Part shown: positions 1-43,099 of the stretch, piece after piece
Layout of the letters: every line of letters begins with the position of its first letter
How positions within the stretch are numbered: position 1 is the stretch's first letter
Virus record (IMG/VR): IMGVR_UViG_3300049044_000016
Coordinates: 1-43,226 of that record
Strand: one strand, 5' to 3'
Source: a virus
Taxonomy: Duplodnaviria; Caudoviricetes
DNA length: 43,226 bases
The notes under the pieces: model-generated
Database searches by the model: none
Seen by the model: only the letters and a program-made list of their open reading frames with translations
What the model was told of the DNA's origin: nothing
Position numbers and translations under genes: made by a program

Positions 1-126
1 GGTCTGTCACCTCCACCTGTTTTGGCTTCGCCTTCATCTCCCATACGTCCTTTATACCCTTACCTGTTATGAATGCCATTGCTACTCCTGCGATCCACAT
101 AATTTCCTCCGTGTCGAGTTCAATCC
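1..126. repeat. Terminal direct repeat (assembly overlap), copy 1
   Basis: 1-126 is identical to 43100-43225; base 127 (C) differs from the final base 43226 (G). Confidence 0.95.
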
Positions 127-382
127 CGACATACTGCGTAAAGCCAATGATTATACAAGCTATAATGAGTGTGGCGAACTTTGTCTTACTCCACTTCACC
201 GTTTCACCATTCTTTTGCTTCTGAATATCAACGAGCAGTTGCGCGAAGATGAAGTTGACCGACACAGCAATCGACGCGCCGAGCTCCACTTCATCAAGGT
301 TCCATCCTAGCTTTTTGTTTACGGCTATCGCGAACATTGTGAATATTGCCGTTATAAATTTTGGGTCAAGAAATTTTCTCAT
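1..382 (-). CDS. Holin-like membrane protein, 138 aa, spanning the circular junction (382->1 then 43099->43065)
   Basis: RBS AAAGGAG; reads MRKFLDPKFITAIFTMFAIAVNKKLGW...KWSKTKFATLIIACIIIGF...DHAKYSDTSDAV*; about 4 hydrophobic segments; overlaps the endolysin start; not in the ORF track. Confidence 0.8.
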   Translation of the reverse strand, partial: MRKFLDPKFITAIFTMFAIAVNKKLGWNLDEVELGASIAVSVNFIFAQLLVDIQKQKNGETVKWSKTKFATLIIACIIIGFTQYVGIELDTEEIMWIAGVAMAFITGKGIKDVWEMKAKPKQVEVTD

Positions 383-593
383 GACTGTTCTCCTTTGGTT
401 GTCCTGGCGGGTTACCACCGGTAATGATATTTATGACTTCCTGCAGCTCGTCACTATATGTGTTCATGTCCTGCCAGCGATACAGCAGTTTGTCCGCTAT
501 CTGCGGTTGATCATAAAAAAAGCCCCGAACAGCGGTTAGAACGCTGTCCGAGACTGCTGATTGGAGCATTTCCGATTCGTCGTATTCGATCAT
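366..593 (-). CDS. Hypothetical protein (75 aa), doubtful
   Basis: ATGA overlap with the upstream gene, but contains a terminator-like hairpin (515-554). Confidence 0.4.
   Translation of the reverse strand: MIEYDESEMLQSAVSDSVLTAVRGFFYDQPQIADKLLYRWQDMNTYSDELQEVINIITGGNPPGQPKENSHEKIS
515..554 (-). terminator. Intrinsic terminator after the large ejection gene
   Basis: GTCTCGGACAGCG-loop-CGCTGTTCGGGGC followed by T7 on the minus strand. Confidence 0.7.
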
Positions 594-3500
594 TGGCTCA
601 CCTTAATTCCATATTCTTTTTTCTTTTTATTGCGATATTTCGTATTCACTTTTTCGTAAATATCCTTGATTTTCTCTGCTTTATCTGCATCTGACATCGA
701 TGCAGGCAGAGCATTGATTTGCGAAACGATTTCATTTCCAATGTCCCGCTGATATTGCTCGTATTCTTTACCTGTGAGCTCAATCGATTTGTATTCACCT
801 GATTTTGTTGTTCCTTCAATCTTCTTATTAGGCGTTTTAGGCGCTAGCTTTTCATCGTTCGTTCGGTCAATGAGATTGGCTATTGTTACGGCTGCTTCGC
901 TGTACTGCGCTTTGTTCATCTGATAAGGATTGAGATAAGAACCAACAAACCCGCCAGCATGCTGCTTTTCTTGTCCAAGTGTTGTCATAGCTGCAGGAAG
1001 CGCTTTAGACGTATACTTTTCTGGAATAAGTCCGCCAAATGAAGGTGTACGGGATTTATAGTAGTCCAATACGTCTTTAACAAATCCTTCCCCATATGCC
1101 GTTTTACGTACCGTCTTGTCTTCTCTGCGTGCTTCTTGTGCTAAGAAGCTAGGACTAAATGATTTAGCAAACATCTCCGCTACACGCTGTATGAAGCCAA
1201 CTGATTTATCGCCTGATGTCTTATCTTGATACGATTGGACGGCTTGCTGGATACCTGTAAGAGCCGACATACCGAGTAAAGATCCAGCTGCTTCTGTTCC
1301 TGCACCTTTGAGCATTGAACCTAATCCTTCGCTCCTACGCTGTTCTAAGCCAACACCTATAGCCATAGGGAAAGCAAGTGGCTGGAACTTGTTGTAGTTC
1401 ATCTGAACATCGCCTTTTTGGAATGCTGCGGCTTTATACGGGTCTTCTCCGTTAAACAATGCCCCAATATATCGCATGAGAGCAGATGTATTTAGTAGAT
1501 ATTTTCCCCGTCCGGCTTGTTCCCTGATCTTATCTACATCTTTAAAACCACTCTCGTTAGAACCCGTGAGAATCCCAGCTCTAGAAAGTTCGTACCCGAT
1601 TGCAGATAGCCCGCCACCGCCAATTAAGCTTAATCCCATGCGGCTCAATGCATTTGCTTTAACAGCTTCATCTTTGACGAACGATAGTTCGAATAATCCT
1701 CTAAGCAAACCAACAGGAGTCAAGTCAACGGCTGTACTTGCAATGTTAATAGGTGTCTTAACGAATGGCGCAACGGTTTGAATTGGAGCTTTTGCAATTG
1801 CCGGAAGCGTATGGATTGCATTCGCAAGCTTAGCACCTGTACTCTTATTCCGTTGGAATGTAACCCGTCTTGCTTGATCATCCGCATATTCCATTGCTGC
1901 TTGATCTGGATTAGCTGCAAAGTTTTCAGCGAACCTTTTCTGATTAGCCGTTCCTTGTATTCCTTGGTTCTTCGCATTAATAAATCCTCGTCTTAACAAT
2001 TCTCTATCATACACAGTCTTATAAGTGGCATAGTCTGCACCTTTTGCAACGGCACTTAGAGAACGTTCAAGGTAGTGAGGAACAATAGATGCAATGTTTT
2101 TACCTTTGAATACAAGACCGCCTACATCGCGTGGGCCCGTCAGTCCTGCTGGATTAACGCCCTGCCAGCTTGCTCGTACACCGAATCTAAGGTTTTTGAA
2201 GTATTGTCCCATCCATGTTAATGGATTAGATTGATAGGCTGTCATTCTCCTTGGCTGTTTAAGAACTCCTGCCATCATCACATCAGCCATCGTAGCCGCT
2301 AACTGTCCGATTCTATACGTAGACGCCATAAGCGGACCAGACAATGCATTGACTAATTGGGTACCAGTATTGAGCAACATTCCGATATAACGCAGCGCAT
2401 TAGCGCGATCTAGCCAATCAGACTGTTCGAACCCATTAATAATTTTTTGCAGTTCTAAATCCGCTTCTGCTTTCTCTGCACCTTTTAATCGACTAACCGA
2501 TTGCGCAAGATCACGAATCTTTTTCACTTCCGCCTGACTCAATGATGGTGTGGAACGAAGAAATTTTTGTGCCATCTTCTCAGCTGTACCAGGAACCGCT
2601 CTATCGAATATTTTATAAGCTAGTTCATCAATATGCTTGTAGTCGATAGGTTCACCCGTTTGCGGGTCTATTTTCTTCGTTTCGTCCTTAATACCCGTTA
2701 TCTTTCGAAGCAATTTCTGCATTTCTTTAACAGACTCCGGTGTTTTGGGTTTCGTTACATCTTCTGCTTGTTTCATCTTACGTGCGATTTGAGATGACAA
2801 TTGTGCCAATTGTTTCTCTTCTGTTGTCGCCTTTGGATTTTTCAATATCGCATTAAGATTGTTTGCAGCATTATGCAAAGCTTCGATATCATCATTGTCG
2901 ATTTCTCCACGCTTCATTTTTTCGATAGAACGTTGCGTATTATACACCATTTCTTCGACTGTTTGCTTTCTAGCTTCCTTACTAATTGCTGCTACACCTT
3001 CTGCTGCACGTTCAGTCGTTATCGTAATATTACGATTCATAATACGTTTACCTTGATCAAATGCACGTTTTAAATATGGTTTAACGGAATCGCCAAACTC
3101 TTGTATCATTTCAGACGAAAAATCAGCGAATTTAACTGATTTACGTAACATCTTAGAAGCTGCAATAATTCCCATATCTACATATACATCGAATGGGTTA
3201 GCCGATAATGTATTACGTCTAGCATTCATCCTTGCTTGTGCAGACTGTTCATGTTTCGTTACCCAATCGACAATAGCATCACGTTTACGGCGTCCTGCTG
3301 GCGTGCTAGTGTCGATTGGACGGGATGGCGATAAATCAGGCTGTTTATTATCAAGGAATGCCTGCAAATCATCCTGGAAGTTACGAAGAATTCCCTGTTC
3401 TTCTGCCGTTAATAGCTCTCCACGTAACGATTTTTCGCTAATAGCCAGAACCTCATTCGCGGTATCTTGGCTTAATCCAGCCGTTTTAGCAGTCTTAGCT

Positions 3501-5416
3501 ACTTCTAAAATATTTTCTTCTTGCTCAGTTGTTAGCTTAATCTGCTTATTTGTAGGAAGCTTTTTGTTAATATCCTTAACGATACGTTTGATTCGTAGCA
3601 ATTGTCCTTCTGGCGATAGACGTTGAATCATGGATAATGCTTGATTGAATTGGCCTGCTTTTGTTGCCTTCTCCGCTAACTCGTCGATCAGTCTAGCTGC
3701 TTCTTTATTTCTACCTTGCTGTTGAAGACGGTTTATAGCAACGATTGCTGTTGCAGCTTGGTCAGCATCTACGCCTTCACCTGAGCGCGTATAACTGATT
3801 GCCTCGTCTAATCCTTGTTCATCGATCATTCTATTAGCCTTGCCTAACGATTCTGGGTTGCTAATCTGACGGTATCCTCTACGCTCGGACATGCTTAATT
3901 CTCGACGAAGTTCAGGACTTAATTCCGTATTCTCATAGTTACTGTATAGCCTACGCTCACCCTCTGGTACTGCTGGACGCTCTCCACGTTGAATGATTGG
4001 CGGTTCTCCTAATACGCCTTTAGATTTGATCCTAGCGCTTACAGGGAACGGTTCTCTTGTTGGTGCAGGAGCTGGAGTTGTCGATTCGCTAAATCTACCT
4101 AACCGTTCTTCTGGTAGATACGTTTCCGGTTGGAACTCTGGTTGATTGCGTGTAATTACAGGCGTTTCGGGAATATTGGCGTCTCGCAGAACGGCATTGA
4201 TTTCATCAGGTGAAAGCTCCGATATTCGCACAATTTCATTCTCTGGTAGTTGTGTAATACGTGCGATTGCTTCTTCAGGAATATTCTTAGAACGAAGCTT
4301 TGATATGGCAGTCTTAGCAAGATTTCCGAGTGCTGGCATGACAACATCCGCAACACCGCCGAGAGCGCCGCCAATAGCTGCGCTTTTCGCTATGTCCTTA
4401 GCGCTAGGATCACCTTGCAGGAGTGGCATCAAAGCGCCTGTTCCTGCTCCAGCTAAAGCACCTGTAGCGGCACGGTTAATAACTTGTGGGGTAGCATGTA
4501 TGCCATAGTTGGCCAACATCGGATTGAGCGATTCGATTTTACCTAAAACGGATTGTGCGGCCTTTGTTCCCATCAACGCTCCAGCGGCTTTATATGGCGT
4601 TGTAATAAGGCTTTGTTCAAGCGCAGCAGGGTTAATCGAACCGGCGGCAATTGATCCGATTCCCTTTGCAATCTTACCACCAATTCCATTTGAACCAGGC
4701 GGAAGGTTGTGAGTGTCAAATCCCATCATTTCATTGGCTCCGCGCTCAAATTCAGCCACACCAGGAATAGCTAATTCTAATGCATTAATAGCTTGCGGCA
4801 GTATTTCTCCGTATTTATTTGTAACCGCGACTAGGCTGTTAGGGTCTTTCCCAATAGTGGCACGCTGTCTTTTCTTTTTCTGTTCATTAAACCATTGTTC
4901 TTTACGTGCTTGTAGCGACATTTCAGGCGTTGCACCAGCCTTGATAAATTGTTCTGCCGCTTCTTTGGTCGGGGCAACGTATCCTGTTGTTTGGTGTGTA
5001 CGTTGCGGGAACAACCTATTTTTGGTCGCATCAGCGATTTCTTGCGGTGAAGGCATAGTCTGAACAGGTTTAGTCATCGCTGGTTGTGGTTGTGCGAATG
5101 AAACCGGTTCATGAAATTCTACGTTAGGCGTGAGCCTGTTCATCAGAAATGGATTTTGACTTTGCATATACGATGGAATCTCTTGCTCAACTTTTGGCTG
5201 AGAAGAAGCAGAAAGCACGCCTTTCGATTTAATCGGCTGGCGTGCTTGTGGTTGTGTCTGAACGGGCATTAAATCCTGCTGAGTCACGACGATATTCGAT
5301 TGACGTTGCGGCGTTGGCGGCGCGTACGTTCTGTTTAGTGTCGGATCGATCTTCGTATAGGTTGGCGTGGGAGCACTCAGCACCGATTTATTCTTTAGCT
5401 TTGTTTTCGTTGCCAT
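590..5416 (-). CDS. Large internal virion / DNA-ejection protein (1608 aa)
   Basis: Last and largest late gene before lysis; RBS GGAGGTGA; P/Q-rich N-terminus, G/A-rich hydrophobic patch, helical body. Confidence 0.7.
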   Translation of the reverse strand: MATKTKLKNKSVLSAPTPTYTKIDPTLNRTYAPPTPQRQSNIVVTQQDLMPVQTQPQARQPIKSKGVLSASSQPKVEQEIPSYMQSQNPFLMNRLTPNVEFHEPVSFAQPQPAMTKPVQTMPSPQEIADATKNRLFPQRTHQTTGYVAPTKEAAEQFIKAGATPEMSLQARKEQWFNEQKKKRQRATIGKDPNSLVAVTNKYGEILPQAINALELAIPGVAEFERGANEMMGFDTHNLPPGSNGIGGKIAKGIGSIAAGSINPAALEQSLITTPYKAAGALMGTKAAQSVLGKIESLNPMLANYGIHATPQVINRAATGALAGAGTGALMPLLQGDPSAKDIAKSAAIGGALGGVADVVMPALGNLAKTAISKLRSKNIPEEAIARITQLPENEIVRISELSPDEINAVLRDANIPETPVITRNQPEFQPETYLPEERLGRFSESTTPAPAPTREPFPVSARIKSKGVLGEPPIIQRGERPAVPEGERRLYSNYENTELSPELRRELSMSERRGYRQISNPESLGKANRMIDEQGLDEAISYTRSGEGVDADQAATAIVAINRLQQQGRNKEAARLIDELAEKATKAGQFNQALSMIQRLSPEGQLLRIKRIVKDINKKLPTNKQIKLTTEQEENILEVAKTAKTAGLSQDTANEVLAISEKSLRGELLTAEEQGILRNFQDDLQAFLDNKQPDLSPSRPIDTSTPAGRRKRDAIVDWVTKHEQSAQARMNARRNTLSANPFDVYVDMGIIAASKMLRKSVKFADFSSEMIQEFGDSVKPYLKRAFDQGKRIMNRNITITTERAAEGVAAISKEARKQTVEEMVYNTQRSIEKMKRGEIDNDDIEALHNAANNLNAILKNPKATTEEKQLAQLSSQIARKMKQAEDVTKPKTPESVKEMQKLLRKITGIKDETKKIDPQTGEPIDYKHIDELAYKIFDRAVPGTAEKMAQKFLRSTPSLSQAEVKKIRDLAQSVSRLKGAEKAEADLELQKIINGFEQSDWLDRANALRYIGMLLNTGTQLVNALSGPLMASTYRIGQLAATMADVMMAGVLKQPRRMTAYQSNPLTWMGQYFKNLRFGVRASWQGVNPAGLTGPRDVGGLVFKGKNIASIVPHYLERSLSAVAKGADYATYKTVYDRELLRRGFINAKNQGIQGTANQKRFAENFAANPDQAAMEYADDQARRVTFQRNKSTGAKLANAIHTLPAIAKAPIQTVAPFVKTPINIASTAVDLTPVGLLRGLFELSFVKDEAVKANALSRMGLSLIGGGGLSAIGYELSRAGILTGSNESGFKDVDKIREQAGRGKYLLNTSALMRYIGALFNGEDPYKAAAFQKGDVQMNYNKFQPLAFPMAIGVGLEQRRSEGLGSMLKGAGTEAAGSLLGMSALTGIQQAVQSYQDKTSGDKSVGFIQRVAEMFAKSFSPSFLAQEARREDKTVRKTAYGEGFVKDVLDYYKSRTPSFGGLIPEKYTSKALPAAMTTLGQEKQHAGGFVGSYLNPYQMNKAQYSEAAVTIANLIDRTNDEKLAPKTPNKKIEGTTKSGEYKSIELTGKEYEQYQRDIGNEIVSQINALPASMSDADKAEKIKDIYEKVNTKYRNKKKKEYGIKVSQ

Positions 5417-5427
5417 GCTGTCACCTC

Positions 5428-5712
5428 CTAATAGTAGCCGTTCTTATCCCAGAATGTCAGTGCATCCGCTGGCGTTCCGTATCGATCTTTTACGTACTTG
5501 ATCCCCGCCAGTATTTGTTGATACGGATCGTTCCAGTTTACATTCTTACCGCCGTAGTTCTGGCGTGTCGAATCGAGAAACTGGAATAGCCCTTTCGCAG
5601 ACGACTTGGGATTAGCCGCATTCGCGTTGAACGACGATTCCCTAGCAATCAGTTCGAGCAATGGTTGCGACCAATCAGCAGGCAAATTAAGCGACTGCAG
5701 CGCCTTCGTCAC
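5428..5712 (-). CDS. Lytic transglycosylase (SLT) domain; probably translated as a -1 frameshift extension of 5814..7481
   Basis: Motifs IARESS, AKGLFQF, GIKYVKDRYG; no RBS before the GTG; frame open upstream past 5820. Confidence 0.85.
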   Translation of the reverse strand: MTKALQSLNLPADWSQPLLELIARESSFNANAANPKSSAKGLFQFLDSTRQNYGGKNVNWNDPYQQILAGIKYVKDRYGTPADALTFWDKNGYY

Positions 5713-5780
5713 ACCGTTTTGAGCAGTCGTATACCCGCTCGGATTACCCTTCGCATCCGATGCAGCTTTGTAATAATTGG

Positions 5781-5826
5781 AGTAGCCAGCGCCCCCATTA
5801 TTGGACGCGCTGGCTACTGAAAAACC
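5781..5826 (-). promoter_or_regulatory. Putative -1 frameshift signal: slippery G GTT TTT (5826-5820) plus downstream stem-loop (5818-5781)
   Basis: CCG GTT TTT CAG TAG followed by AGTAGCCAGCGC...GCGCTGGCTACT, a 12-bp perfect stem. Confidence 0.75.
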
Positions 5827-7481
5827 GGTGCATAGTCCGGATCGCTTTTGAGTTTGTTGATTTCTTCCATTGTGTAGCCTGCTTTCGTGAGTGCTGAAAC
5901 CATGTCTTTCCCGCTAATTCCGTAATCGTTGTACAACTGTACAAACGCATCCTCTTTAGCTTTGCTTAGCTGATCTTCAAGCGGTTTTGTATCTTGTCCC
6001 TCTTTTTGCGCTTGCTTGATCTGGTCTACAATGCTGCTTAATGAACTGGAAATCAGATTACCTGCATCAACGGGAGACATCGTCTTTGCTTGCTTGTTCT
6101 GCGCTGCCGCTTTGTCCTGCATTTGCTGATACTTAAACATGTCAGAATCCAAGTCTTGGGCGGCTTTACGATATGCCGCGTCATTTGTCAGTGTGCCCTC
6201 CGGTACGCCAAGAATCTGCGATACGGCAGGCGTTGCGTGACCCGTTGTCTGCCATTCTTGCAGTGCTGCTGAGCGCGTCGCAAGATCACGTTGCTGCTGT
6301 TCTGTTACAAGTCCGCTCGTTACCTGTTGACCTTCCATCGTCTGTCCCTCACCGCCAGCAGCAATTTGACGTGGCAATCCACTCCAATCTTCCTGCGGAT
6401 GGAGAAGTAATCCGGATTGATTCATGTACGATTCAGCAGCGTTCAAATTCGCCTGTTTGTTCGCCAAGTCCTGCGACTGACCGCCAAGCGTTCGGATGCT
6501 AGGAGCACCGCCTTGTAATGCAGTTTCCAGCGTCTTGTTAGCACCATAACCGCTCGTATCGTATCCCATGTTTTGAAGTTGTACGCGGGCCGCGTCTGCT
6601 TGTGCTCTTGCCGAATCCATCGCCGCACGATCACCGCGAGTTGCCGCGTCAGCATATGTGCGTTTCGCACCAGTGACACTGTTATAAAGTGCCATTGCCG
6701 CTGGGTCCGTGAACGAACCGAGCAATTGGCCCTTGTTGTAGTTGTTCGTCCAGTCCTGCTGAACCTGTTGGTCTGCTCTTGATTGTTGCCCAATCAATTG
6801 ATTCAGCGCCGAAATTGAGTTATTGAATTGGTTCTGCTGTTCGGCCTGTTTAGCGGCAATAATGTTAGGAACAACCTGTGTCATGAGATAATTCGTAGCG
6901 TCGTTCTGAATGCCGTTTACGCGCTCTCCAAGGCCGTATGAGCGCCCGAATCCAGCGGAGCCGTATGCTTCTTGCGCGGCTCGTATGTTCTGTCCTGCTG
7001 CTCTCTGCGCTTGTGCATTTGCGGCGGCATACTCAGCGGTAGAATACGGGTCAATCGCCTGCGGATGCTGCGCCGCATTCATGAGATACGAGATCGTATC
7101 ATTGACCTGCTGATTGTATGGGTTATTGTTGCTTGCGCTGCTTGCATATGGGTTGTATCCCGTTGTTGTCGGCTGTGCTTGTTGATTAGGCTGTTGATTA
7201 TACGATTTCCACGCCTGAGCGAAGTCGTGAGCGCTTGTATAGCCTGCACCGCCGTAGTTCTTGTTAGCCCGCATGAACGGTTTACCATTGACGCTGTAGG
7301 CGTTTGTATTAGCGTTGTAGCCGATATGTTCAGGCCTTACGCCCTTTCCCTTTAGCGCCGTGTTTACGTTCGTTGTATACGCCCCTGTAGACGATGGCGT
7401 GTTGACTGCGGACGTTGATACACCTGGCGTGGCTTGCTGTGCATATTTTTGCTGTGTTTGCGACCATAAGTTTGTAGCCAT
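5814..7481 (-). CDS. Internal virion / ejection (pilot) protein (555 aa)
   Basis: Q/A/N-rich low-complexity helical protein between the tail genes and the giant ejection gene. Confidence 0.7.
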   Translation of the reverse strand: MATNLWSQTQQKYAQQATPGVSTSAVNTPSSTGAYTTNVNTALKGKGVRPEHIGYNANTNAYSVNGKPFMRANKNYGGAGYTSAHDFAQAWKSYNQQPNQQAQPTTTGYNPYASSASNNNPYNQQVNDTISYLMNAAQHPQAIDPYSTAEYAAANAQAQRAAGQNIRAAQEAYGSAGFGRSYGLGERVNGIQNDATNYLMTQVVPNIIAAKQAEQQNQFNNSISALNQLIGQQSRADQQVQQDWTNNYNKGQLLGSFTDPAAMALYNSVTGAKRTYADAATRGDRAAMDSARAQADAARVQLQNMGYDTSGYGANKTLETALQGGAPSIRTLGGQSQDLANKQANLNAAESYMNQSGLLLHPQEDWSGLPRQIAAGGEGQTMEGQQVTSGLVTEQQQRDLATRSAALQEWQTTGHATPAVSQILGVPEGTLTNDAAYRKAAQDLDSDMFKYQQMQDKAAAQNKQAKTMSPVDAGNLISSSLSSIVDQIKQAQKEGQDTKPLEDQLSKAKEDAFVQLYNDYGISGKDMVSALTKAGYTMEEINKLKSDPDYAPVFQ

Positions 7482-7503
7482 GTTATCACCCTCTCTAGGG
7501 AAT

Positions 7504-7530
7504 AAAAAAAGCCCCCATTTCTGGTAGGCT
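7504..7530 (-). terminator. Intrinsic terminator just upstream of the ejection genes
   Basis: GCCTACCA-GAAA-TGGGGGC followed by T7. Confidence 0.6.
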
Positions 7531-7555
7531 CTGCTTTAGGATATAATTGGTATAG

Positions 7556-7744
7556 GTGATGATAATGGATCCAATGCGACTATTACAAATGTTCTTCTGT
7601 CTGAACATCGGTTTCATGTACGCAAATATCTATTTGATCGTGCTTTATTACTTCCTTGGCGATTATCATAATATGGCATTAGGCGTACGCGGTTACTTGA
7701 TTAATCTAGTAGTATACGAAGTGCACAAGCGACGCATGCCGTGA
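7556..7744 (+). CDS. Small hydrophobic membrane protein (moron)
   Basis: TATAAT at 7542, RBS AGGTGA, hydrophobic sequence, opposite strand to the late operon. Confidence 0.5.
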   Translation: MMIMDPMRLLQMFFCLNIGFMYANIYLIVLYYFLGDYHNMALGVRGYLINLVVYEVHKRRMP

Positions 7745-7807
7745 TACAATAGATTTGATAACGAGGTGGTGGTCACGGCGCAGCCTTCTGTAAAGGAGGT
7801 GATAGCC

Positions 7808-7939
7808 ATGACCACGCTTGGTGCGATCTACTTGTTCTTGAAAGTATTCGCTACGTTGTTGAGCCTTTGGTTCAGCGGACGCAAGCTGTACCGATGGATT
7901 AAGCGACGTTACAAGCGAAAACCCACCGCTAAAGGTTGA
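7808..7939 (+). CDS. Putative type I toxin peptide, 43 aa (MTTLGAIYLFLKVFATLLSLWFSGRKLYRWIKRRYKRKPTAKG)
   Basis: RBS AAAGGAGGTGA inside hairpin GCCTTCT-GTAA-AGGAGGT; one TM helix plus basic tail; extended -10 TGATACAAT at 7742-7750; hairpin terminator about 8004-8030. Confidence 0.75.
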   Translation: MTTLGAIYLFLKVFATLLSLWFSGRKLYRWIKRRYKRKPTAKG

Positions 7940-8033
7940 CCGCCTTCGGTGGGTTCGCTGATCATCTGATATGCGCGCGCCGTGGCTCATACCATCGTTA
8001 TCTGAGGGAGGCTAGCGACCTCCCTTATTTCTA
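7915..8033 (-). ncRNA. Putative antisense antitoxin sRNA (about 115 nt)
   Basis: Promoter TTGCGC-17-TATGAT (8067-8039); terminator AACCCACCG...CGGTGGGTTTT overlapping the toxin 3' end. Confidence 0.65.
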
Positions 8034-8069
8034 TTCTAATCATACACCGCGTATTTTAGACGCGCAAGG

Positions 8070-8621
8070 TTATTGTGCTTCTAACTCCGCAATTCGTGCG
8101 TTGATCGCGTCGAGTTGGGTTTGGTAGTCGGCAAGTTTTTGCTTGTTGTTCGCAAGCGATTTGTTTAGATCGTCAACTCTCTTATGAGCGTTGGCCTTTT
8201 CTGCGTCTGTTCGAACTGCTTGACTATCAATAATTTTCGCTTCTTCAACAGTTTTTGGTATCGCTTCTTCCTCTTGATATTTAATGATTCTCTGTAATTC
8301 AACAATTTTCTTTTCAATGAACGATTTTTTACTCCGAAGTGTGTACAATTCGGATTCTACTGCATCATTTGTTAACGGTATTGTCATGTTAATCACTCCC
8401 GAACTTGGCTCAACCTGTGCTCCGATTGCTTCTGCTGTATCTCTGACAGGCAAATAACTTGTACTATCTACGATAATCGCTGTTCCGACAGGCTTACCGT
8501 TCAATTTTACCTCTTTTTGTCCGTCAACTGTTTGCCCTACTAATGACGTTACAGCGCCGTATGCAGGAAATGCAGAAGCAATCAATGCACCAAATACAAC
8601 ACCAATAATAAACTTTTTCAT
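8070..8621 (-). CDS. Secreted stalk-domain (copper amine oxidase N-terminal-like) coiled-coil protein, moron
   Basis: Signal peptide MKKFIIGVVFGALIASAFPAYG; motif IIVDSTSYLPVRDTAEAIGAQV; own extended -10 TGATATACT near 8655-8663. Confidence 0.7.
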   Translation of the reverse strand: MKKFIIGVVFGALIASAFPAYGAVTSLVGQTVDGQKEVKLNGKPVGTAIIVDSTSYLPVRDTAEAIGAQVEPSSGVINMTIPLTNDAVESELYTLRSKKSFIEKKIVELQRIIKYQEEEAIPKTVEEAKIIDSQAVRTDAEKANAHKRVDDLNKSLANNKQKLADYQTQLDAINARIAELEAQ

Positions 8622-8664
8622 TGTCCACACCCCTATGTTACAGATTGTGGCAATAGTATATCAC

Positions 8665-9629: not shown

Positions 9630-11054
9630 CTAATACTGGACAGTCTGAAGTCTCGAATATCGCTGCACCTCTTGAATGGTTGCTGGCCCTGTACCACTCA
9701 GGCGATAAGAGTAGAAATGGCATAAAGGTATCGTATCTAGCGGGACTATCATATTCTTGTTCTGCGTTGCCGATGCTGTGCCGGTCGGATCGTAACTAAT
9801 CGAGTACCACGTCGATCCGATTTCATCGGGAGCCACTTCAACCGATAATGTCGTACCACTTGGGAAAAGTCCTTGTAGGTGCATTTCCCATAATTCTTTC
9901 TCGCTCTCTTTCATCCCCTCATCGAATGGCTTGGATTGGACAAGCCAAGGAATCGCCGTTCCTGCATCTGTCGTACCGTCATTCATCTTGTATGTCTGTC
10001 CGCTACTATCGCCGCAGTAGGCCGTATTGTTGAGCTGAGCTCCGAAACGTAAGCTTGGAAGATTAGCACTGTACGGGTACCACTTTTTGAATCGTGTGTC
10101 GTATACAAGGCATGTGTCAGGCTGAGTATTCGCGCCGGTCGGAATACATAGATAATAGCGGTCATCGTCCGTAAAGGCGAATGCATTCGAAATGGCCGAT
10201 GAATTGATGCTGTCAATGTACCGCTTTATCGGTGCTCCGATTGGTGAAGCAGCGCCGCCAGCTCCGATATATACGTCTGTCTCGCCAAGCCAGAACAGGT
10301 ATTCCGCGCACTCTAGCAATGTTTTATATGACGCACAGCCAATGTCGTTTGAACCTTCAACAAGGCGGTGTGTGATCCGACTATCGCCAGTATGGAATAT
10401 GAGGCAATAAGCGTCTTTCTTGAACGCCCATATCTGTCCAGCGTAAGCTTTTAACGCGGTAACTGGACCGCCTCGGTCGGTGTAGAATTGAACAGCACCG
10501 CTATTTTCAGGTGTAGTCCAATCCGTAGCATCCTGGAACGCACAATAGTAAATAACGTCTTCTGTACCGGATACGCCAGCAGTATACACGCGCCTGTTAT
10601 CAGATGCCACATACTTACCTTCTGGCATATCAGCTAATGCTGCCAAGGCCGATCCGTTCCAATACTGCGGCGTGTCCGTCCCATTGGTAACAATGAGCGC
10701 TTGTCCTCCAATATCGAAGTTAGTTGCATCCCAATCGGTATCGGTCCATGTTCCAGATATGTCCGTCCATGTTGTTCCTGTGCTGTTATACTGCAATTTT
10801 GTTCCAACAGCCCGCACAAGATGGACATTACCGAAGTTCGTCAGCAGCCTTGTTGTCGCCGCTCCAGATGCGCCGTACGTTGTCCTTCCACGTCTTACCT
10901 TAATCGCTGGATATTCGTCGAAATCCCACCCGTAACCGTCTACAATCGCATTATCGGCAATAAAAAAAGGACTCTTTTCTGTATCGAGTCCCTCCGTAAA
11001 GTTATTTGCAGATCGTTTGTCCATGTTACGAGGCAAGTTTTGCCAGATCGCCAT
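9630..11054 (-). CDS. Tail nozzle / tubular protein B-like (P22 gp10 / T7 gp12-type beta-propeller)
   Basis: Start MAIWQN with RBS GGAGG; W/G/D-rich propeller-like repeats; follows the adaptor gene. Confidence 0.7.
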   Translation of the reverse strand: MAIWQNLPRNMDKRSANNFTEGLDTEKSPFFIADNAIVDGYGWDFDEYPAIKVRRGRTTYGASGAATTRLLTNFGNVHLVRAVGTKLQYNSTGTTWTDISGTWTDTDWDATNFDIGGQALIVTNGTDTPQYWNGSALAALADMPEGKYVASDNRRVYTAGVSGTEDVIYYCAFQDATDWTTPENSGAVQFYTDRGGPVTALKAYAGQIWAFKKDAYCLIFHTGDSRITHRLVEGSNDIGCASYKTLLECAEYLFWLGETDVYIGAGGAASPIGAPIKRYIDSINSSAISNAFAFTDDDRYYLCIPTGANTQPDTCLVYDTRFKKWYPYSANLPSLRFGAQLNNTAYCGDSSGQTYKMNDGTTDAGTAIPWLVQSKPFDEGMKESEKELWEMHLQGLFPSGTTLSVEVAPDEIGSTWYSISYDPTGTASATQNKNMIVPLDTIPLCHFYSYRLSGTGPATIQEVQRYSRLQTVQY

Positions 11055-11055
11055 A

Positions 11056-11730
11056 TCAATTCCTCCAGATGGACGCCCAACCACCATAAGTTACATTCCA
11101 TTGTGGGCGGTAGTTACCGTCTATCGCTTGCGAGAATTCCGGTTCCTTTAGTTTTCTTGCCCACAAAACGTCAGCAATCTTCTGCTCATACTCAGCCGAA
11201 TAGTTAGAAACCATAATGCTGTCTTTTCGAGCCATTGCGATACGTTTCAATACGCCAAGCTTGAGCAATTCTTGGTACTTGGTTGGTAGATTCGGAGCAA
11301 CACTAAGATTCGCTGACGTAACTTGGTCTGGGTCGCTGTCTGTGTAGATGTAGACTGTGTGATCGTCAGGCACCGTGTCAGGAACGTACAGGTACATCGC
11401 GTCGCTGATAATGGTATACCAAGGCGCTGTAATCACGTATTGACGGTCATCGTTGCGTAAAAAAGGAACCTCCACGAATGAAGGTTCCGGATCTGTATTT
11501 TCACTGATTTGATACGTTACGGTTTTTATCTTCGTTGTATCAAACTGGTCAGGGAACGGATAAAAGTTCTCTCCTGCCACCGTCTGGAACGTGTACGGGG
11601 AGCTGTCCAGTTCGAGGACGTCGAATAACTCCTGCTGCTCCTCGTTGAACCATACAAGTTTCTCGTCGGTAGTGAAACTATTACGATAACGAAGGTTGAT
11701 GTCGTCTAGTATTTGTTGTGATGATGGCAT
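11056..11730 (-). CDS. Head-tail adaptor (tubular protein A-like)
   Basis: Typical size and motifs (WFNEEQQEL, ENFYPFPDQF, PNLPTKYQELL) and position. Confidence 0.7.
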   Translation of the reverse strand: MPSSQQILDDINLRYRNSFTTDEKLVWFNEEQQELFDVLELDSSPYTFQTVAGENFYPFPDQFDTTKIKTVTYQISENTDPEPSFVEVPFLRNDDRQYVITAPWYTIISDAMYLYVPDTVPDDHTVYIYTDSDPDQVTSANLSVAPNLPTKYQELLKLGVLKRIAMARKDSIMVSNYSAEYEQKIADVLWARKLKEPEFSQAIDGNYRPQWNVTYGGWASIWRN

Positions 11731-17067: not shown

Positions 17068-17308
17068 TGCCGTTCCTCCTCTGCTTTGGTGTGAAACATC
17101 CATTATGGCTATCCTCGTTTATGCAATCTCGCGTTATTTCTGCCATTCCTAGCGCTTCCATGTACGTGTATGCATCATATACGGTCATTGTCGTCCCATC
17201 TTTAAGCGAGAAAGTAACGACGTATTGATCAATATCATGAAAGTTCTCTTCGATATAGTTGATCAATCCTGTTTTCGACTCTGGATAGATTCGCTTAACG
17301 TCTCCCAT
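17060..17308 (-). CDS. Hypothetical protein (82 aa)
   Basis: Coupled to the portal stop codon. Confidence 0.7.
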   Translation of the reverse strand: MGDVKRIYPESKTGLINYIEENFHDIDQYVVTFSLKDGTTMTVYDAYTYMEALGMAEITRDCINEDSHNGCFTPKQRRNGNG

Positions 17309-19137
17309 TACATAACACCCCCCTGCAATGCCGCTATCAACTCAGGCGGTATCTGTGGCGCTGGCTGTGGCATTGGAGCAGAACCTGGCGGCACAGCGCC
17401 CATAGGTGGCGGCATGCCTTCTGCCATCTGCGGCGGTTGCATGCTCTGGTCGTTCTCGTCATCCAAGTCCATGCCTACTTGTTCACGCATGAACCGACGC
17501 ATTTCGTTGCGCGTGATTGCTGGTCCATCCGGAAATGTGAGCTTCGCGAAATCCGTCATCATCTGCAGCATAAACGCTCGGTCATTCGGGAATCCGTTAC
17601 CAAGGTTCAACTTGAAGTCGTAACGCGCCTCCCTTGTCATTCCCTCGCCGTTCTCGTCCTTCAGCTGCTTAATCGGTTCCTCGTCATCGAATCCTTCCTG
17701 TCCGTACATTGCATTAGGGACCATCATTGGAAGTCGTCGAAAGTCAGTAGGGTTGATGAATTTAAAGTCTGGTTTATCGCCGGCAATCCGAATCCACATT
17801 TCCGAATCCCAATTCTCCATGATCTCATCGAACAGGAGGTTCAGAACGTCTTCCCAACCGGCTTTGAACATTTCGTTTTTGTGTACGACTGTCTTTTGCC
17901 CTGCCTGTTGGAGCGCCATGATAGCCGCTGCTGCCGTGACTGCTCCAGGCTGTTCACCACGGTTGACGTCAGGCGTGCCCGCGATCAAATCAGCCTCTTG
18001 GAATGCCTTCTCGCGACGTACAGGTACATCCGGGCTAACAGGCGTGCCCTGCACAACATGGAATGAATTGTGGTCACGCATCGGAATGCGAAGCCCAGGC
18101 TTGCTTGTCCATTTGCGGAAATCGAATCCCTTGCCAGCTCCCATGCCAACAACAATCTGCGGATTACCCATTAGTCGCGCATTGATGCGAATCTGATCGT
18201 CCAATTCGTTTATAAGGTCTTGGGTAGGGATAAGTAGTTCAACGTCTCCCATGCCCCATGACGTGCCCCTGCGGAGGTAGCAATTGATCTTCACGAACGG
18301 GTAAAGGTTACGCCGCTGCAGTTTCTTCCCTTTCAGCGTCTTCCTGCTGTCTTCGAGCAATATGTCATTGGCTACGTGCAAACAGTAAAGCTCCCCGTCC
18401 TCGTCACGCATGTAGCATTCGAGAAGGAGAGCTTTTTGGGATGTATCAACATGTACTTCATCGGCTTCCGCGTCCGTGAATGTCTGATCCGGATCGTAAG
18501 GGACTGATACCTCGCGCCTGACAAACTTACCTTTAGGCCACTTTTTGCGGAAGAATGACAGCGGTTTAGGCACAGCGTGAATGATAAACTCGCTTTGCTG
18601 TAACTCATGCGCCCGTGTCACCTTCGGATCATCGAAGAAGTTTGCAGGGCTGACAATCTCGAACTTCGGCAGGCCCTTTCCATCGTCCTCGTCATGATCG
18701 AACCACACTTTGACAATCGTTGTGCCAAGTTCCAGCCGATCGTGCTCGCTGTCGTTGATTTTGGCTTTCAGCTTATTGCGGTATAGCACGTAGTCAACGA
18801 GGTTCTGCGCCTGCTCAGCGAACATATCGTCTGATGGCTCCCACCCCTCGGCGCTGCTGCTGTATGGCTTATCAATCAAGTCGGCTATCTGCGACTCAAT
18901 GATACGGTGAATGACGTTCGTGACGCTGCCAGGGTGTTCCTCTGACTGCTTCGGGTTCTGGCGATTGTGCTTGTAGTCATCGCACATACGCCATATCTGC
19001 GGCAAATTAAGCTGCTGCTTCGCATCCCACGCCTCACGGAACATCTGCTGCACCCGTAGGGCTAAGTCACGTTCCTCGCCTGTCTGGGGTGCTTCTCCTG
19101 TCTCGCGGTCTGTCTTGTCCATAATATCCGTTGGCAT
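17308..19137 (-). CDS. Portal protein (P22-like)
   Basis: 609 aa after TerL; motifs WGMGDVELLIPTQDLINE, TAAAAIMALQQAG; P/Q/M-rich tail. Confidence 0.85.
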   Translation of the reverse strand: MPTDIMDKTDRETGEAPQTGEERDLALRVQQMFREAWDAKQQLNLPQIWRMCDDYKHNRQNPKQSEEHPGSVTNVIHRIIESQIADLIDKPYSSSAEGWEPSDDMFAEQAQNLVDYVLYRNKLKAKINDSEHDRLELGTTIVKVWFDHDEDDGKGLPKFEIVSPANFFDDPKVTRAHELQQSEFIIHAVPKPLSFFRKKWPKGKFVRREVSVPYDPDQTFTDAEADEVHVDTSQKALLLECYMRDEDGELYCLHVANDILLEDSRKTLKGKKLQRRNLYPFVKINCYLRRGTSWGMGDVELLIPTQDLINELDDQIRINARLMGNPQIVVGMGAGKGFDFRKWTSKPGLRIPMRDHNSFHVVQGTPVSPDVPVRREKAFQEADLIAGTPDVNRGEQPGAVTAAAAIMALQQAGQKTVVHKNEMFKAGWEDVLNLLFDEIMENWDSEMWIRIAGDKPDFKFINPTDFRRLPMMVPNAMYGQEGFDDEEPIKQLKDENGEGMTREARYDFKLNLGNGFPNDRAFMLQMMTDFAKLTFPDGPAITRNEMRRFMREQVGMDLDDENDQSMQPPQMAEGMPPPMGAVPPGSAPMPQPAPQIPPELIAALQGGVM

Positions 19138-37966: not shown

Positions 37967-38715
37967 TACGATATTTTCCCGTTATCAACGAGCATCTTGT
38001 GGATATATGACATTCCTTTTGGCGTTACAAGCGTTTGTGTTTTGTTTTCTATTCCACTTGTTAAATGAGTGATACTGTACTGACGAACATCGAAATATCC
38101 TCGCTTGCGATATTCTTCATATGGGAGATTATTGTCTCGTAGAATTTTCTTTTCGCGTAAGAACTCGAATAGTTTGTTGCGACCGTATCCAATCGTTTTC
38201 GCTACACGTTCCATCGTGAAGTTGTTCTTTGCACTCATTGCCGTGTCATACAATGCTACTTTCGGTGCTTGTAATGCTATCACTTCATCTTTTTCCTTCA
38301 ATTCTTCTTTAGCCGCAATGAGTTCTTGTTTTTCTACAATCCACCGCTGCGCCCGTTTAACTGGATCATCGATCATGTAGCTATCCGGCTCTGCTTGGAT
38401 TTGTTTCAGCCGTTTCTCACATTCAATGAAGTATCGACGAGCCATTCTTCCTTTTTCGTTGTTCTCGACCATGCATAGCTCTTTCGCCATATCGATTGAT
38501 AGATCATAATCAATTCGCGGTCGACCTCCGTCCGAGGTTTTCCCCGTTTTCGGGGAAAAGTCTTCACCCTCGATAAATCCGAACTTTTCAACCTTATCTT
38601 TGAACCATGTCGGAAAGTCCCGACCGATTTCCAGAAACTCATGCAGTTCGCGACCGTTTACAGTCATTCCATTTTCTGAATGGTTTACTTTGATAAGTTG
38701 CATTTCCATTGCCAC
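37966..38715 (-). CDS. Antirepressor (AntA/AntB plus KilA-C domains)
   Basis: VNGRELHEFL, LSIDMAKELCMVENNEKG, GRNKLFEFLREKKIL, TLVTPKG. Confidence 0.9.
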   Translation of the reverse strand: MAMEMQLIKVNHSENGMTVNGRELHEFLEIGRDFPTWFKDKVEKFGFIEGEDFSPKTGKTSDGGRPRIDYDLSIDMAKELCMVENNEKGRMARRYFIECEKRLKQIQAEPDSYMIDDPVKRAQRWIVEKQELIAAKEELKEKDEVIALQAPKVALYDTAMSAKNNFTMERVAKTIGYGRNKLFEFLREKKILRDNNLPYEEYRKRGYFDVRQYSITHLTSGIENKTQTLVTPKGMSYIHKMLVDNGKIS

Positions 38716-42400: not shown

Positions 42401-43099
42401 TTACTTCAAGAACCCCAACCGCCGCATTTCTGGTTCCAAGGTTAGCAATCGATTCTGTGCCCACACCTTCTGCTGCTCGTTGACTTCCTTCCCGAACGAA
42501 TCTTTACCCTTCGACAAGTTGTAAAGGTACAGCAATTCGTTGGCGATCCGGTACGCTAGTTCCTCACGCTTCTGTGGCGATTGTGCATGCGCTGCTTCCT
42601 GTTCAATCTTATGTACGAATTCAAGGATGGCAGGCACGCTTGTACAAGGGCATGCCGTAGCTACAAGGGCATTGTGCGGTTTGACTGACTTAATTGTAGG
42701 AACAAGACTCTTGACCGTTATAATCGATACTGCAAGTAGTTCACGTTCACGATCCGTAATCGAACGTTGCGACAAGTCGGCATTAACGCAAATACCTATG
42801 GTATGGTCGTTGTGGCCTTTCGTATGGTACGATTCCGCACGTAAATCATTCGTTTGATATATGCGATCGTTGTCGACCATTAAATGATAGCCGATTCCAG
42901 CCCAATCATGAGTATCCACATGATATCTAGCTTGATTAACAAGCGGTGCCGTGCTTTTAGTGTGATGGATAACGATTGTATCCTTTTTCTCAATTTCGAG
43001 CAATTTATATACTTTCGTCGGATGATGCGGCAGGCTGTCTGTAATGTCCTCAATCTGATTATAATTAGACAGCATCGCTGGTATCTGAATATTTCGCAT
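42401..43099 (-). CDS. Endolysin, N-acetylmuramoyl-L-alanine amidase (Amidase_2/PGRP-like)
   Basis: IVIHHT, WAGIGYH, HTKGHN, KPH, ACP motifs; RBS GGAGGTGA. Confidence 0.9.
   Translation of the reverse strand: MRNIQIPAMLSNYNQIEDITDSLPHHPTKVYKLLEIEKKDTIVIHHTKSTAPLVNQARYHVDTHDWAGIGYHLMVDNDRIYQTNDLRAESYHTKGHNDHTIGICVNADLSQRSITDRERELLAVSIITVKSLVPTIKSVKPHNALVATACPCTSVPAILEFVHKIEQEAAHAQSPQKREELAYRIANELLYLYNLSKGKDSFGKEVNEQQKVWAQNRLLTLEPEMRRLGFLK

Follow-up and report, generated by a model that had tools for sequence, protein, structure and literature searches.

A probable programmed -1 ribosomal frameshift joining a likely ejection protein to a predicted peptidoglycan-cutting domain in short-tailed phages of Bacillales

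The closest described counterpart of the locus analyzed here comes from the Alteromonas phage vB_AspP-H4/4, for which a -1 frameshift has been proposed to fuse a peptidoglycan hydrolase with an internal virion protein (gp39/gp40; PMC5658483). Our subject is the junction between a gene of 555 amino acids (aa), below also called the body, and a lytic transglycosylase (SLT) frame in IMGVR_UViG_3300049044_000016, the record of a soil phage (Duplodnaviria; Caudoviricetes); the whole record, 43,226 nucleotides (nt) long, was analyzed and is referred to as the window. In the H4/4 record (MF278336) the lysozyme-like gene ends with A_AAA_AAG directly before the stop and is annotated as joined to the large internal virion protein. 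The likeness to the window lies in a podovirus in which a -1 shift would link a hydrolase with an internal virion protein and in which the heptamer stands directly at the stop. However, in H4/4 the lysozyme comes first, the short product would be the free enzyme, the position is that of T7 gp16, the phage is T7-like with a Gram-negative host, and the proposal consists of one sentence, untouched by comparison or bench work.

Gene 10A/10B of T7 and T3 and the capsid genes of Kuraviruses resemble the window in that some of the subunits receive an additional C-terminal domain through a -1 shift close to the 3' end of their gene; the X_XX part of the T7 site is G_GU, as in the window, and the Kuravirus site is G_GGA_AAG. 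They differ from it in that the proteins are capsid proteins with non-enzymatic extensions and that the T7 stimulator is distant and not a nearby hairpin (PMC5009743 and PMC9965538; these, like PMC8954989, PMC10386132 and PMC4524249, are cited throughout for the sections that concern the point in question). Genes G/GT of lambda come close to the window family with a heptamer at the gene end, a fixed ratio of short to long product and sites of the G_GGA_AAG type, but they belong to a long-tailed phage and their products include no enzyme and stay outside the virion; dnaX (tau/gamma), with a heptamer, a 3' stem-loop and both polarities among species, is a cellular replication gene (PMC5009743). 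T7 gp16-type ejection proteins are also encoded in a cluster with a wall-opening transglycosylase and with a mid-sized gene followed by a larger one, but there every gp16 carries the enzyme permanently at its N-terminus (PMC8954989). That review does not use the word "frameshift"; the hosts it covers are Gram-negative bacteria and mycobacteria, and it describes phi29-like phages of Gram-positive bacteria as devoid of such genes. A preliminary description of the window knew of no report of the arrangement for an ejection protein. No account of the signal of the window family was found in the literature searched (mostly non-subscription texts without supplements, where genome-wide frameshift tables could list such loci), but H4/4 is a precedent in kind. 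What we describe is a known mechanism in a gene class with one proposed precedent, and its most interesting addition is an apparently reversible polarity.

The organization of the junction and its conservation indicate that it is very probably a site of programmed -1 ribosomal frameshifting. The 555-aa open reading frame (ORF; 7481-5814, minus strand) terminates with CCG GTT TTT CAG TAG, which places the heptamer G GTT TTT at 5826-5820. The -1 frame is open from 5820 to a TAG at 5430-5428, i.e. for 130 codons, of which 36 lie ahead of a GTG at 5712, and its residues 50-117 match the Pfam SLT family PF01464 (E-value 1.7e-10; 40.9 bits, cut-off 21.3). A glutamate encoded at 5640-5638, which we take to be catalytic from its place in SLT motif I, is invariant in 7 of 7 aligned sequences. 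We predict that the extension is a peptidoglycan-cutting SLT domain; frame arithmetic gives a fusion of 554+130 = 684 aa (73.6 kDa, versus 59.7 kDa for the short form). The heptamer, the 36 open codons leading into SLT and a fusion of about 684 aa had all been put forward in the preliminary description and were recovered here. Behind the heptamer, 12 Watson-Crick pairs (5818-5807/5792-5781) and a 4-base-pair (bp) upper stem form a hairpin of -30.9 kcal/mol (z-score -6.62; none of 200 shuffled sequences was equally stable), the most stable one that follows a slippery-type heptamer in any of the 139 window frames of at least 80 codons (the scan lists the same stem once more, for a heptamer in the -1 frame). 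The stem had been described as starting right after the heptamer; it does begin 1 nt past it and does comprise 12 pairs, but only for its G+C-rich part, which starts at 5814 after a 5-nt spacer, is the distance kept in relatives, and the first four pairs would be melted by the ribosome at the slip site. Because gene callers annotate the locus as two genes, one for a hypothetical protein and one for a truncated SLT, databases do not contain the long protein.

Four collection scans and two genome searches yielded 156 loci in the final count. Among the 68 distinct loci that were parsed, 61 (the window being one) have SLT in the -1 frame of a long upstream gene, SLT is fused in frame in 5 and is a free gene in 2. 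Six further loci were not parsed: two in-frame fusions (L142, L144), two loci cut by a contig end (L054, L092), a tape measure gene (L106) and an unrelated locus (L138); L093, which is H4/4, was excluded from the counts. The tally for 70 distinct loci including the window is thus 61 with the -1 offset, 7 in frame and 2 with their own start. The relatives are prophages of Paenibacillus, Cohnella and Gorillibacterium and, more distantly, of Bacillaceae; lysogens made up 22 of the 401 Paenibacillus and 6 of the 269 Bacillus genomes searched. Alignment of these loci for slip site, stem and offset, suggested earlier as a check, found all three kept in most of them. Strict X_XXY_YYZ heptamers occur in 52 of the 61 loci, most of them G_GGA_AAC or G_GGA_AAG (all sites: G_GGA_AAC, 34; G_GGA_AAG, 13; G_GGG_GAG, 3; G_GUU_UUU, A_AAU_UUU, G_GAU_UUU and G_GGU_UUU, 2 each; G_UUU_UUU and G_GGU_UUA, 1 each; none clear, 1). 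The loci are related by descent, and these counts are not independent events; still, at least nine heptamer sequences have been swapped at the junction with place and frame constant, and therefore shared descent alone is an insufficient explanation. Among the replacements are G-run heptamers (G_GGG_GAG, G_GGG_GGU) in L028, L031, L160 and L144, the first three with the usual hairpin region. For the first set (58 distinct loci out of 82 fetched, after removal of duplicates and one cut locus; 52 junction genes), a strict heptamer lies within the last three codons of 43/52 junction genes versus 6/344 other ORF ends of the same loci, and the stop follows directly after the slip site in 43 of 52.

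Protein searches provided independent support for a slip site at the gene end. A profile search of 1.84 billion representatives reported 337 clusters of body homologues at an E-value of 1e-30, and 45 of the best 150 homologues have the C-terminus GN or GK (background 0.7% per position), i.e. the translation of the two main heptamers; four end with FQ like the window protein and ten with GE. Five of the same 150 carry an enzyme-like C-terminal domain in frame (Pfam SLT in three, a domain that resembles SLT only in its sequence in one, and a VgrG3-like domain in one); that the body is found joined in frame to SLT or another hydrolase-like domain in nature counts in favour of the fusion form. Distant loci encode M23+SLT or NlpC/P60+SLT in the -1 frame. 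Nearly the same M23+SLT cassette as in the -1 frame of L046 occurs in the tape measure protein of L106, which suggests that long- and short-tailed phages have exchanged the enzyme module.

The hairpin is shared by most of the family. In the Paenibacillaceae-type clade a helix of at least 6 bp was found in 43 of 46 loci, 6 nt (39 loci), 5 nt (5 loci, including the window) or 7 nt (2 loci) after the heptamer, which fits the 5-9 nt usual between a heptamer and its stimulatory structure (PMC5009743). The loop length varies between 3 and 22 nt, and at stem positions 1-8 the 15 distinct helices include pairs changed on both sides (counted upward from the base of the stem, as MAFFT did not align the variable loops correctly; the count takes no account of phylogeny). 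The junction window outfolds all 50 flanking windows in 40/52 loci. The Bacillus-type branch keeps the heptamers and has, in place of a strong hairpin, a G-rich tract that also encodes a Gly linker; the tract may represent only Gly codons or another stimulator. In L046, L047, L078, L079, L090, L141 and L143 we noted a G-rich, Shine-Dalgarno (SD)-like tract about 10-20 nt downstream, mostly with no later in-frame start. An upstream SD stimulator of the kind used in dnaX is found in 6 of 54 loci and is not conserved in the window family. A pseudoknot-stimulated frameshift was also considered, and no conserved pseudoknot was found: the mean longest match between loop and downstream sequence over 42 loci (3.57) equals that of control windows (3.57), 17 loci have loops of 5 nt or less, and a possible 6-bp match exists in the window alone. 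A search of 5300-8100 against Rfam found nothing.

Translation of SLT as a separate gene, from the GTG or a nearby TTG or ATG, perhaps by re-initiation after the upstream stop, is very improbable. A GTG does exist, some start codon lies ahead of the catalytic motif in 29 of 52 loci, and two distant relatives have a start of their own. However, the GTG shows no SD pairing (+1.4 kcal/mol, versus -9.1 and -14.5 at two neighbouring starts; the broader control, in which 51/52 upstream starts have an SD, is partly circular, as those starts were picked by an SD-like motif, which leaves the three window values unaffected), and it is present in only 4 of 44 loci; the earlier statement that it lacks a ribosome binding site (RBS) is borne out. 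The remaining 23 of the 52 loci have no start codon in the SLT frame ahead of the catalytic motif, and a start with even a weak SD occurs in 3/52, each time 55-82 codons inside the SLT frame. The 24 codons that precede the GTG vary mostly at the third position (entropy 0.58/0.66/1.49 by codon position, 44 loci) and contain a stop in the -1 frame in none of the 44 loci, compared with 13 and 38 in the other two frames, which indicates that they evolve as protein in the -1 frame. Finally, a separate gene would leave the heptamer and the hairpin unexplained. An own RBS or start for SLT would have told against frameshifting; offset and signal are kept in relatives that lack one, L048 and L101 being the exceptions.

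Two further explanations invoke an altered template. RNA polymerase could slip on the T run (or A run) and add a base, producing a mixed mRNA pool, and a run of five T is indeed present; in dnaX of Thermus such slippage replaces frameshifting (PMC5009743). However, most relatives have only three A, in G_GGA_AAC, and the hairpin distance of 5-7 nt is typical of the ribosome entry channel. The contigs of RNA runs show no gap at the site, a weak argument as contigs drop minor forms (five runs: X19, X20 and X23 bridge the junction, X22 stops 19 bases beyond it and X21 does not cover it; the comparison of contigs reveals neither transcription nor its level). We regard polymerase slippage as highly implausible. 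The second explanation, a sequencing error or a decayed prophage gene in which one lost base split a whole gene, could appeal to the in-frame fusions among the relatives, but has a negligible probability and is already refuted by the comparison of loci: the same offset recurs in 60 other distinct loci with different sequences, the zero-frame stop and the stem flank the site, and the contigs of three DNA runs (X1, X14, X9) cross the junction with identical letters, although these runs may be the source of the window and contigs drop rare variants. The extra base that would have made a plain fusion is absent from every DNA- or RNA-run contig compared.

Given the frameshift, we consider it likely that the body is an ejection protein, on the basis of gene order, the criterion of PMC10386132, the T7 pattern and the separate lysis module. 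Its sequence is A/Q/N-rich, with no Cys and no transmembrane stretch, and the predicted structure is mostly helical, with long helices after a small alpha/beta part at the N-terminus (mean predicted local distance difference test, pLDDT, 83.8; predicted template modelling score, pTM, 0.41). The gene order portal-capsid-adaptor-nozzle-...-body-large gene agrees with a published way to recognize ejectosomal podoviruses (PMC10386132); a long ORF follows the SLT stop in 46/52 loci, the place of the body ahead of a 1200-1600-aa gene is kept, and a nozzle homologue was found in 51 of 82 loci (within the flanks examined). The T7 ejection set, too, includes a transglycosylase that opens the wall (PMC8954989). 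The preliminary description had called the protein an ejection protein outright; gene order and composition fit, but no profile, structure or Atlas match names it. Searches of Pfam and PHROGs with 69 body members returned scattered or unnamed matches only, no PDB sequence matched under an E-value of 0.3, Foldseek against PDB and viral libraries reported nothing at 0.001, the Atlas matches are unnamed (a cluster labelled T7 gp14 has a TM score of 0.24, below the bar), and the top VIA-align hit (Z 8.7) consists of generic helices; the T7 entry 8e4g, ranked 36th, is inconspicuous.

These negative results are what an alternative would build on in which the frameshift is real and the body belongs to the outside of the tail, helps in lysis, or acts in assembly as a chaperone like lambda G/GT: the searches assigned the body to no family, solved structure or fold, its best fold matches are generic coiled coils, and lambda G/GT combines the same kind of signal with absence from the virion (PMC5009743). 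We consider such a non-ejected body rather unlikely, as the place between the nozzle module and the 1200-1600-aa gene is kept, holin and amidase are separate and the body has no membrane anchor, and the appended SLT, M23 and NlpC/P60 are enzyme kinds found in tape measure proteins. The tail assembly chaperone in particular was rejected: no tube or tape measure on which it could act was found among the 28 window proteins scanned.

Taken as a whole, the explanation we favour, in which a likely ejection protein of 555 aa is made alongside a slip product of 684 aa with a predicted peptidoglycan-cutting domain, is probably correct. A conserved slip site that is usually accompanied by a hairpin makes it likely that ribosomes slip and that one gene gives two forms. 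The G+C stem, 5 nt downstream, would make the ribosome pause while the tRNAs for Val and Phe occupy GUU UUU, the tRNAs would re-pair on GGU UUU, and the slipped ribosome would read the linker, the conserved block and SLT; ribosomes that do not slip would terminate one codon later and release the 555-aa form. Judging from gene order, both forms would be packaged into the head and leave it by way of the short tail, the body would form part of a channel, a few or several armed copies would open the Gram-positive wall ahead of it, and the slip rate would set the ratio of armed to unarmed copies. Several observations weigh against this explanation. The window heptamer is relaxed and not strict (XXX = GGU), yet X_XX = G_GU is known for T7 gene 10 and cardioviruses (PMC5009743) and G_GUU_UUU is mentioned in the abstract of PMC4524249. 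Nine of the 61 -1 loci lack a strict heptamer, and L047 lacks a clear site; 15 of the 61, chiefly from the Bacillus-type branch, have no hairpin of -10 kcal/mol or better. L089 has a TAG within the SLT frame just ahead of the catalytic motif, with heptamer and hairpin intact (a broken gene or a sequencing error), and L048 and L101 express SLT from its own start, so that tethering is not universal. Finally, no significant sequence or fold match between the body and T7 gp14-16 or P22 gp7/20/16 was found.

The seven in-frame loci offer a different view of the junction. All seven have a slip-capable site there (G_GGA_AAC in L021 and L034, with 10-bp and 8-bp stems; G_GGU_UUU in L044, L076 and L080; A_AAU_UUU in L142; a G run in L144), followed by a -1 stop 0-2 codons later; with the fusion in frame, slipping would therefore give the short form. 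Their grouping into one clade is rejected (approximately unbiased test, p-AU 0.0008; the underlying quick tree comprises 36 SLT domains and lacks the unparsed L036), and the starred branches force at least three changes; L021 and L034 as one clade are not rejected (p-AU 0.48). The bodies of L076 (in frame) and L079 (-1 type) are 59% identical over the aligned part and share the same heptamer. From these sequence comparisons we are inclined to believe that a reversed polarity operates in the in-frame relatives. A somewhat doubtful alternative, on what is a separate question, is that they are plain fusions whose heptamers and -1 stops are non-working relics. The -1 stops could be by-products (TAG within a conserved AGT AGC; TAA where Asn comes after Phe-TTT), a single base added in the spacer could account for the difference between L021 and the -1 type, and the five Bacillus-type cases have no strong hairpin. 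On the other hand, a strict heptamer is present in 6 of the 7 and a G run in the seventh, each with its nearby -1 stop; the chance of such codons, given the codon use of each gene, is 0.009-0.063 per locus, while L044, L076 and L080 agree in only about half of their synonymous codons (33/66, 38/67 and 36/70), L142 has a different strict heptamer, and L021 and L034 retain their stems.

Both polarities are known for dnaX among species, and one base change can reverse the roles at about 50% efficiency (PMC5009743). Repeated reversal hints that the ratio of armed to unarmed forms is possibly not small, and by analogy with dnaX the fusion may not be the minority form that it was earlier taken to be. 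Tentatively, we propose a reversible ratio switch on the injection machine in a widespread family of short-tailed temperate Bacillales phages, in which both forms would be needed. Such a switch would accommodate the at least nine heptamers, the interchangeable SLT, M23+SLT, NlpC/P60+SLT and VgrG3-like modules and a polarity changed at least twice; slipping would add the enzyme in most lineages and remove it in others. From repeated reversal it would follow that slipping is much more frequent than in lambda G/GT, where it amounts to a few percent, and that the ejection oligomer is mixed. DNA passage of short-tailed phages across the thick Gram-positive wall is poorly known, and the family would offer a tunable handle on it, since a signal of 40 nt, which can be fixed in one frame or the other, would determine how many wall-cutting domains each ejection complex receives. 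Locked, reversed and separate-gene versions occur in nature and can be compared, the hosts are culturable Paenibacillus and Bacillus lysogens, and the 61 signals could serve directly as a collection of bacterial -1 sites together with their matched hairpins.

The setting of the junction in the window is summarized in Table 1. Besides the genes listed there, Pfam and PHROG searches identified terminase, capsid, tail spike and serine integrase; no match to a tail tube, sheath or tape measure was found among the 28 window proteins scanned, and therefore the phage is most likely temperate and short-tailed. The separate amidase endolysin and the holin-like ORF would make SLT dispensable for lysis. 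The nozzle candidate has an Atlas feature score of 0.98 (222/256 shared) to a PF11134 cluster at rank 21. Neither the 555-aa nor the 1608-aa protein matched anything in 50,697 records of isolated phages, and therefore no characterized phage of the window family was found; SLT matches in the same records are tape measure and transglycosylase genes below 60% identity.

Table 1. Features of the frameshift locus and its setting in the window (coordinates as positions of the window)
Feature	Position	Strand	Remark
555-aa body protein, zero frame	5814..7481	-	likely ejection (internal virion) protein
Slippery heptamer G_GUU_UUU (Val-Phe)	5820..5826	-	one codon ahead of stop
Zero-frame TAG stop	5814..5816	-	within 5' arm of hairpin
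Hairpin, 12-bp lower and 4-bp upper stem	5781..5818	-	8-bp G+C part 5814-5807/5792-5785 is the likely stimulator
-1 frame extension, 130 codons and stop	5428..5820	-	short Gly/Ser linker, conserved block, SLT domain
24 codons preceding GTG, conserved as protein in -1 frame	5713..5784	-	codon-position entropy, 44 loci
SLT (lytic transglycosylase) Pfam match	5470..5673	-	putative catalytic Glu 5640-5638
GTG, start assigned by ORF finders	5710..5712	-	no RBS; GTG in 4/44 relatives
1608-aa protein, strong RBS, likely large ejection protein	590..5416	-	directly downstream of SLT frame; no family match
485-aa likely tail nozzle (tubeB)	9630..11087	-	PHROG 3287, E 7.8e-21; Atlas match to PF11134 cluster
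Head-tail adaptor, SU10 type	11056..11730	-	PF24175, E 2.6e-15
Portal, SU10/P22 type	17308..19137	-	PF23899, E 5.9e-18; PF16510, E 1.2e-12
Amidase endolysin, separate	42401..43099	-	PF01510, E 1.9e-10
Holin-like ORF	2-418		phrog_9987 holin, E 7.5e-6

Just upstream of the RBS of the body gene, at 7531-7503 (minus strand), a hairpin-like stretch is followed by a T run; it was seen by eye only and is absent from the terminator scan, and if it is real the ejection genes would need read-through or their own promoter. An element opposed to the late operon (7722-7940, plus strand) comprises a promoter-like site (7722-7750), an SD inside a hairpin (fold z-score -5.7) and a 43-aa ORF (7808-7939), hydrophobic and then basic, for which Pfam returned no match. 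Short RNA-run contigs at 7808-7933 have a depth of 65-330, versus mostly 3-53 nearby (contig depth being a poor measure); a second contig variant of this region differs in 10 letters, and L053 has a 78% identical copy. By resemblance the element looks like a type I toxin-antitoxin toxin gene. Elsewhere, at 38574 (minus strand), a relaxed heptamer in a short frame is followed by 202 open codons in the -1 frame and a fold of -13.9 kcal/mol; the open frame is an antirepressor gene, so this heptamer is probably due to chance. Between the tail genes and the body gene, at 8070-8630 (minus strand), lies a 186-aa gene with a hydrophobic N-terminus and a coiled coil (phrog_23118), possibly, as a guess, a superinfection exclusion protein; many relatives have similar moron-like genes at this place.

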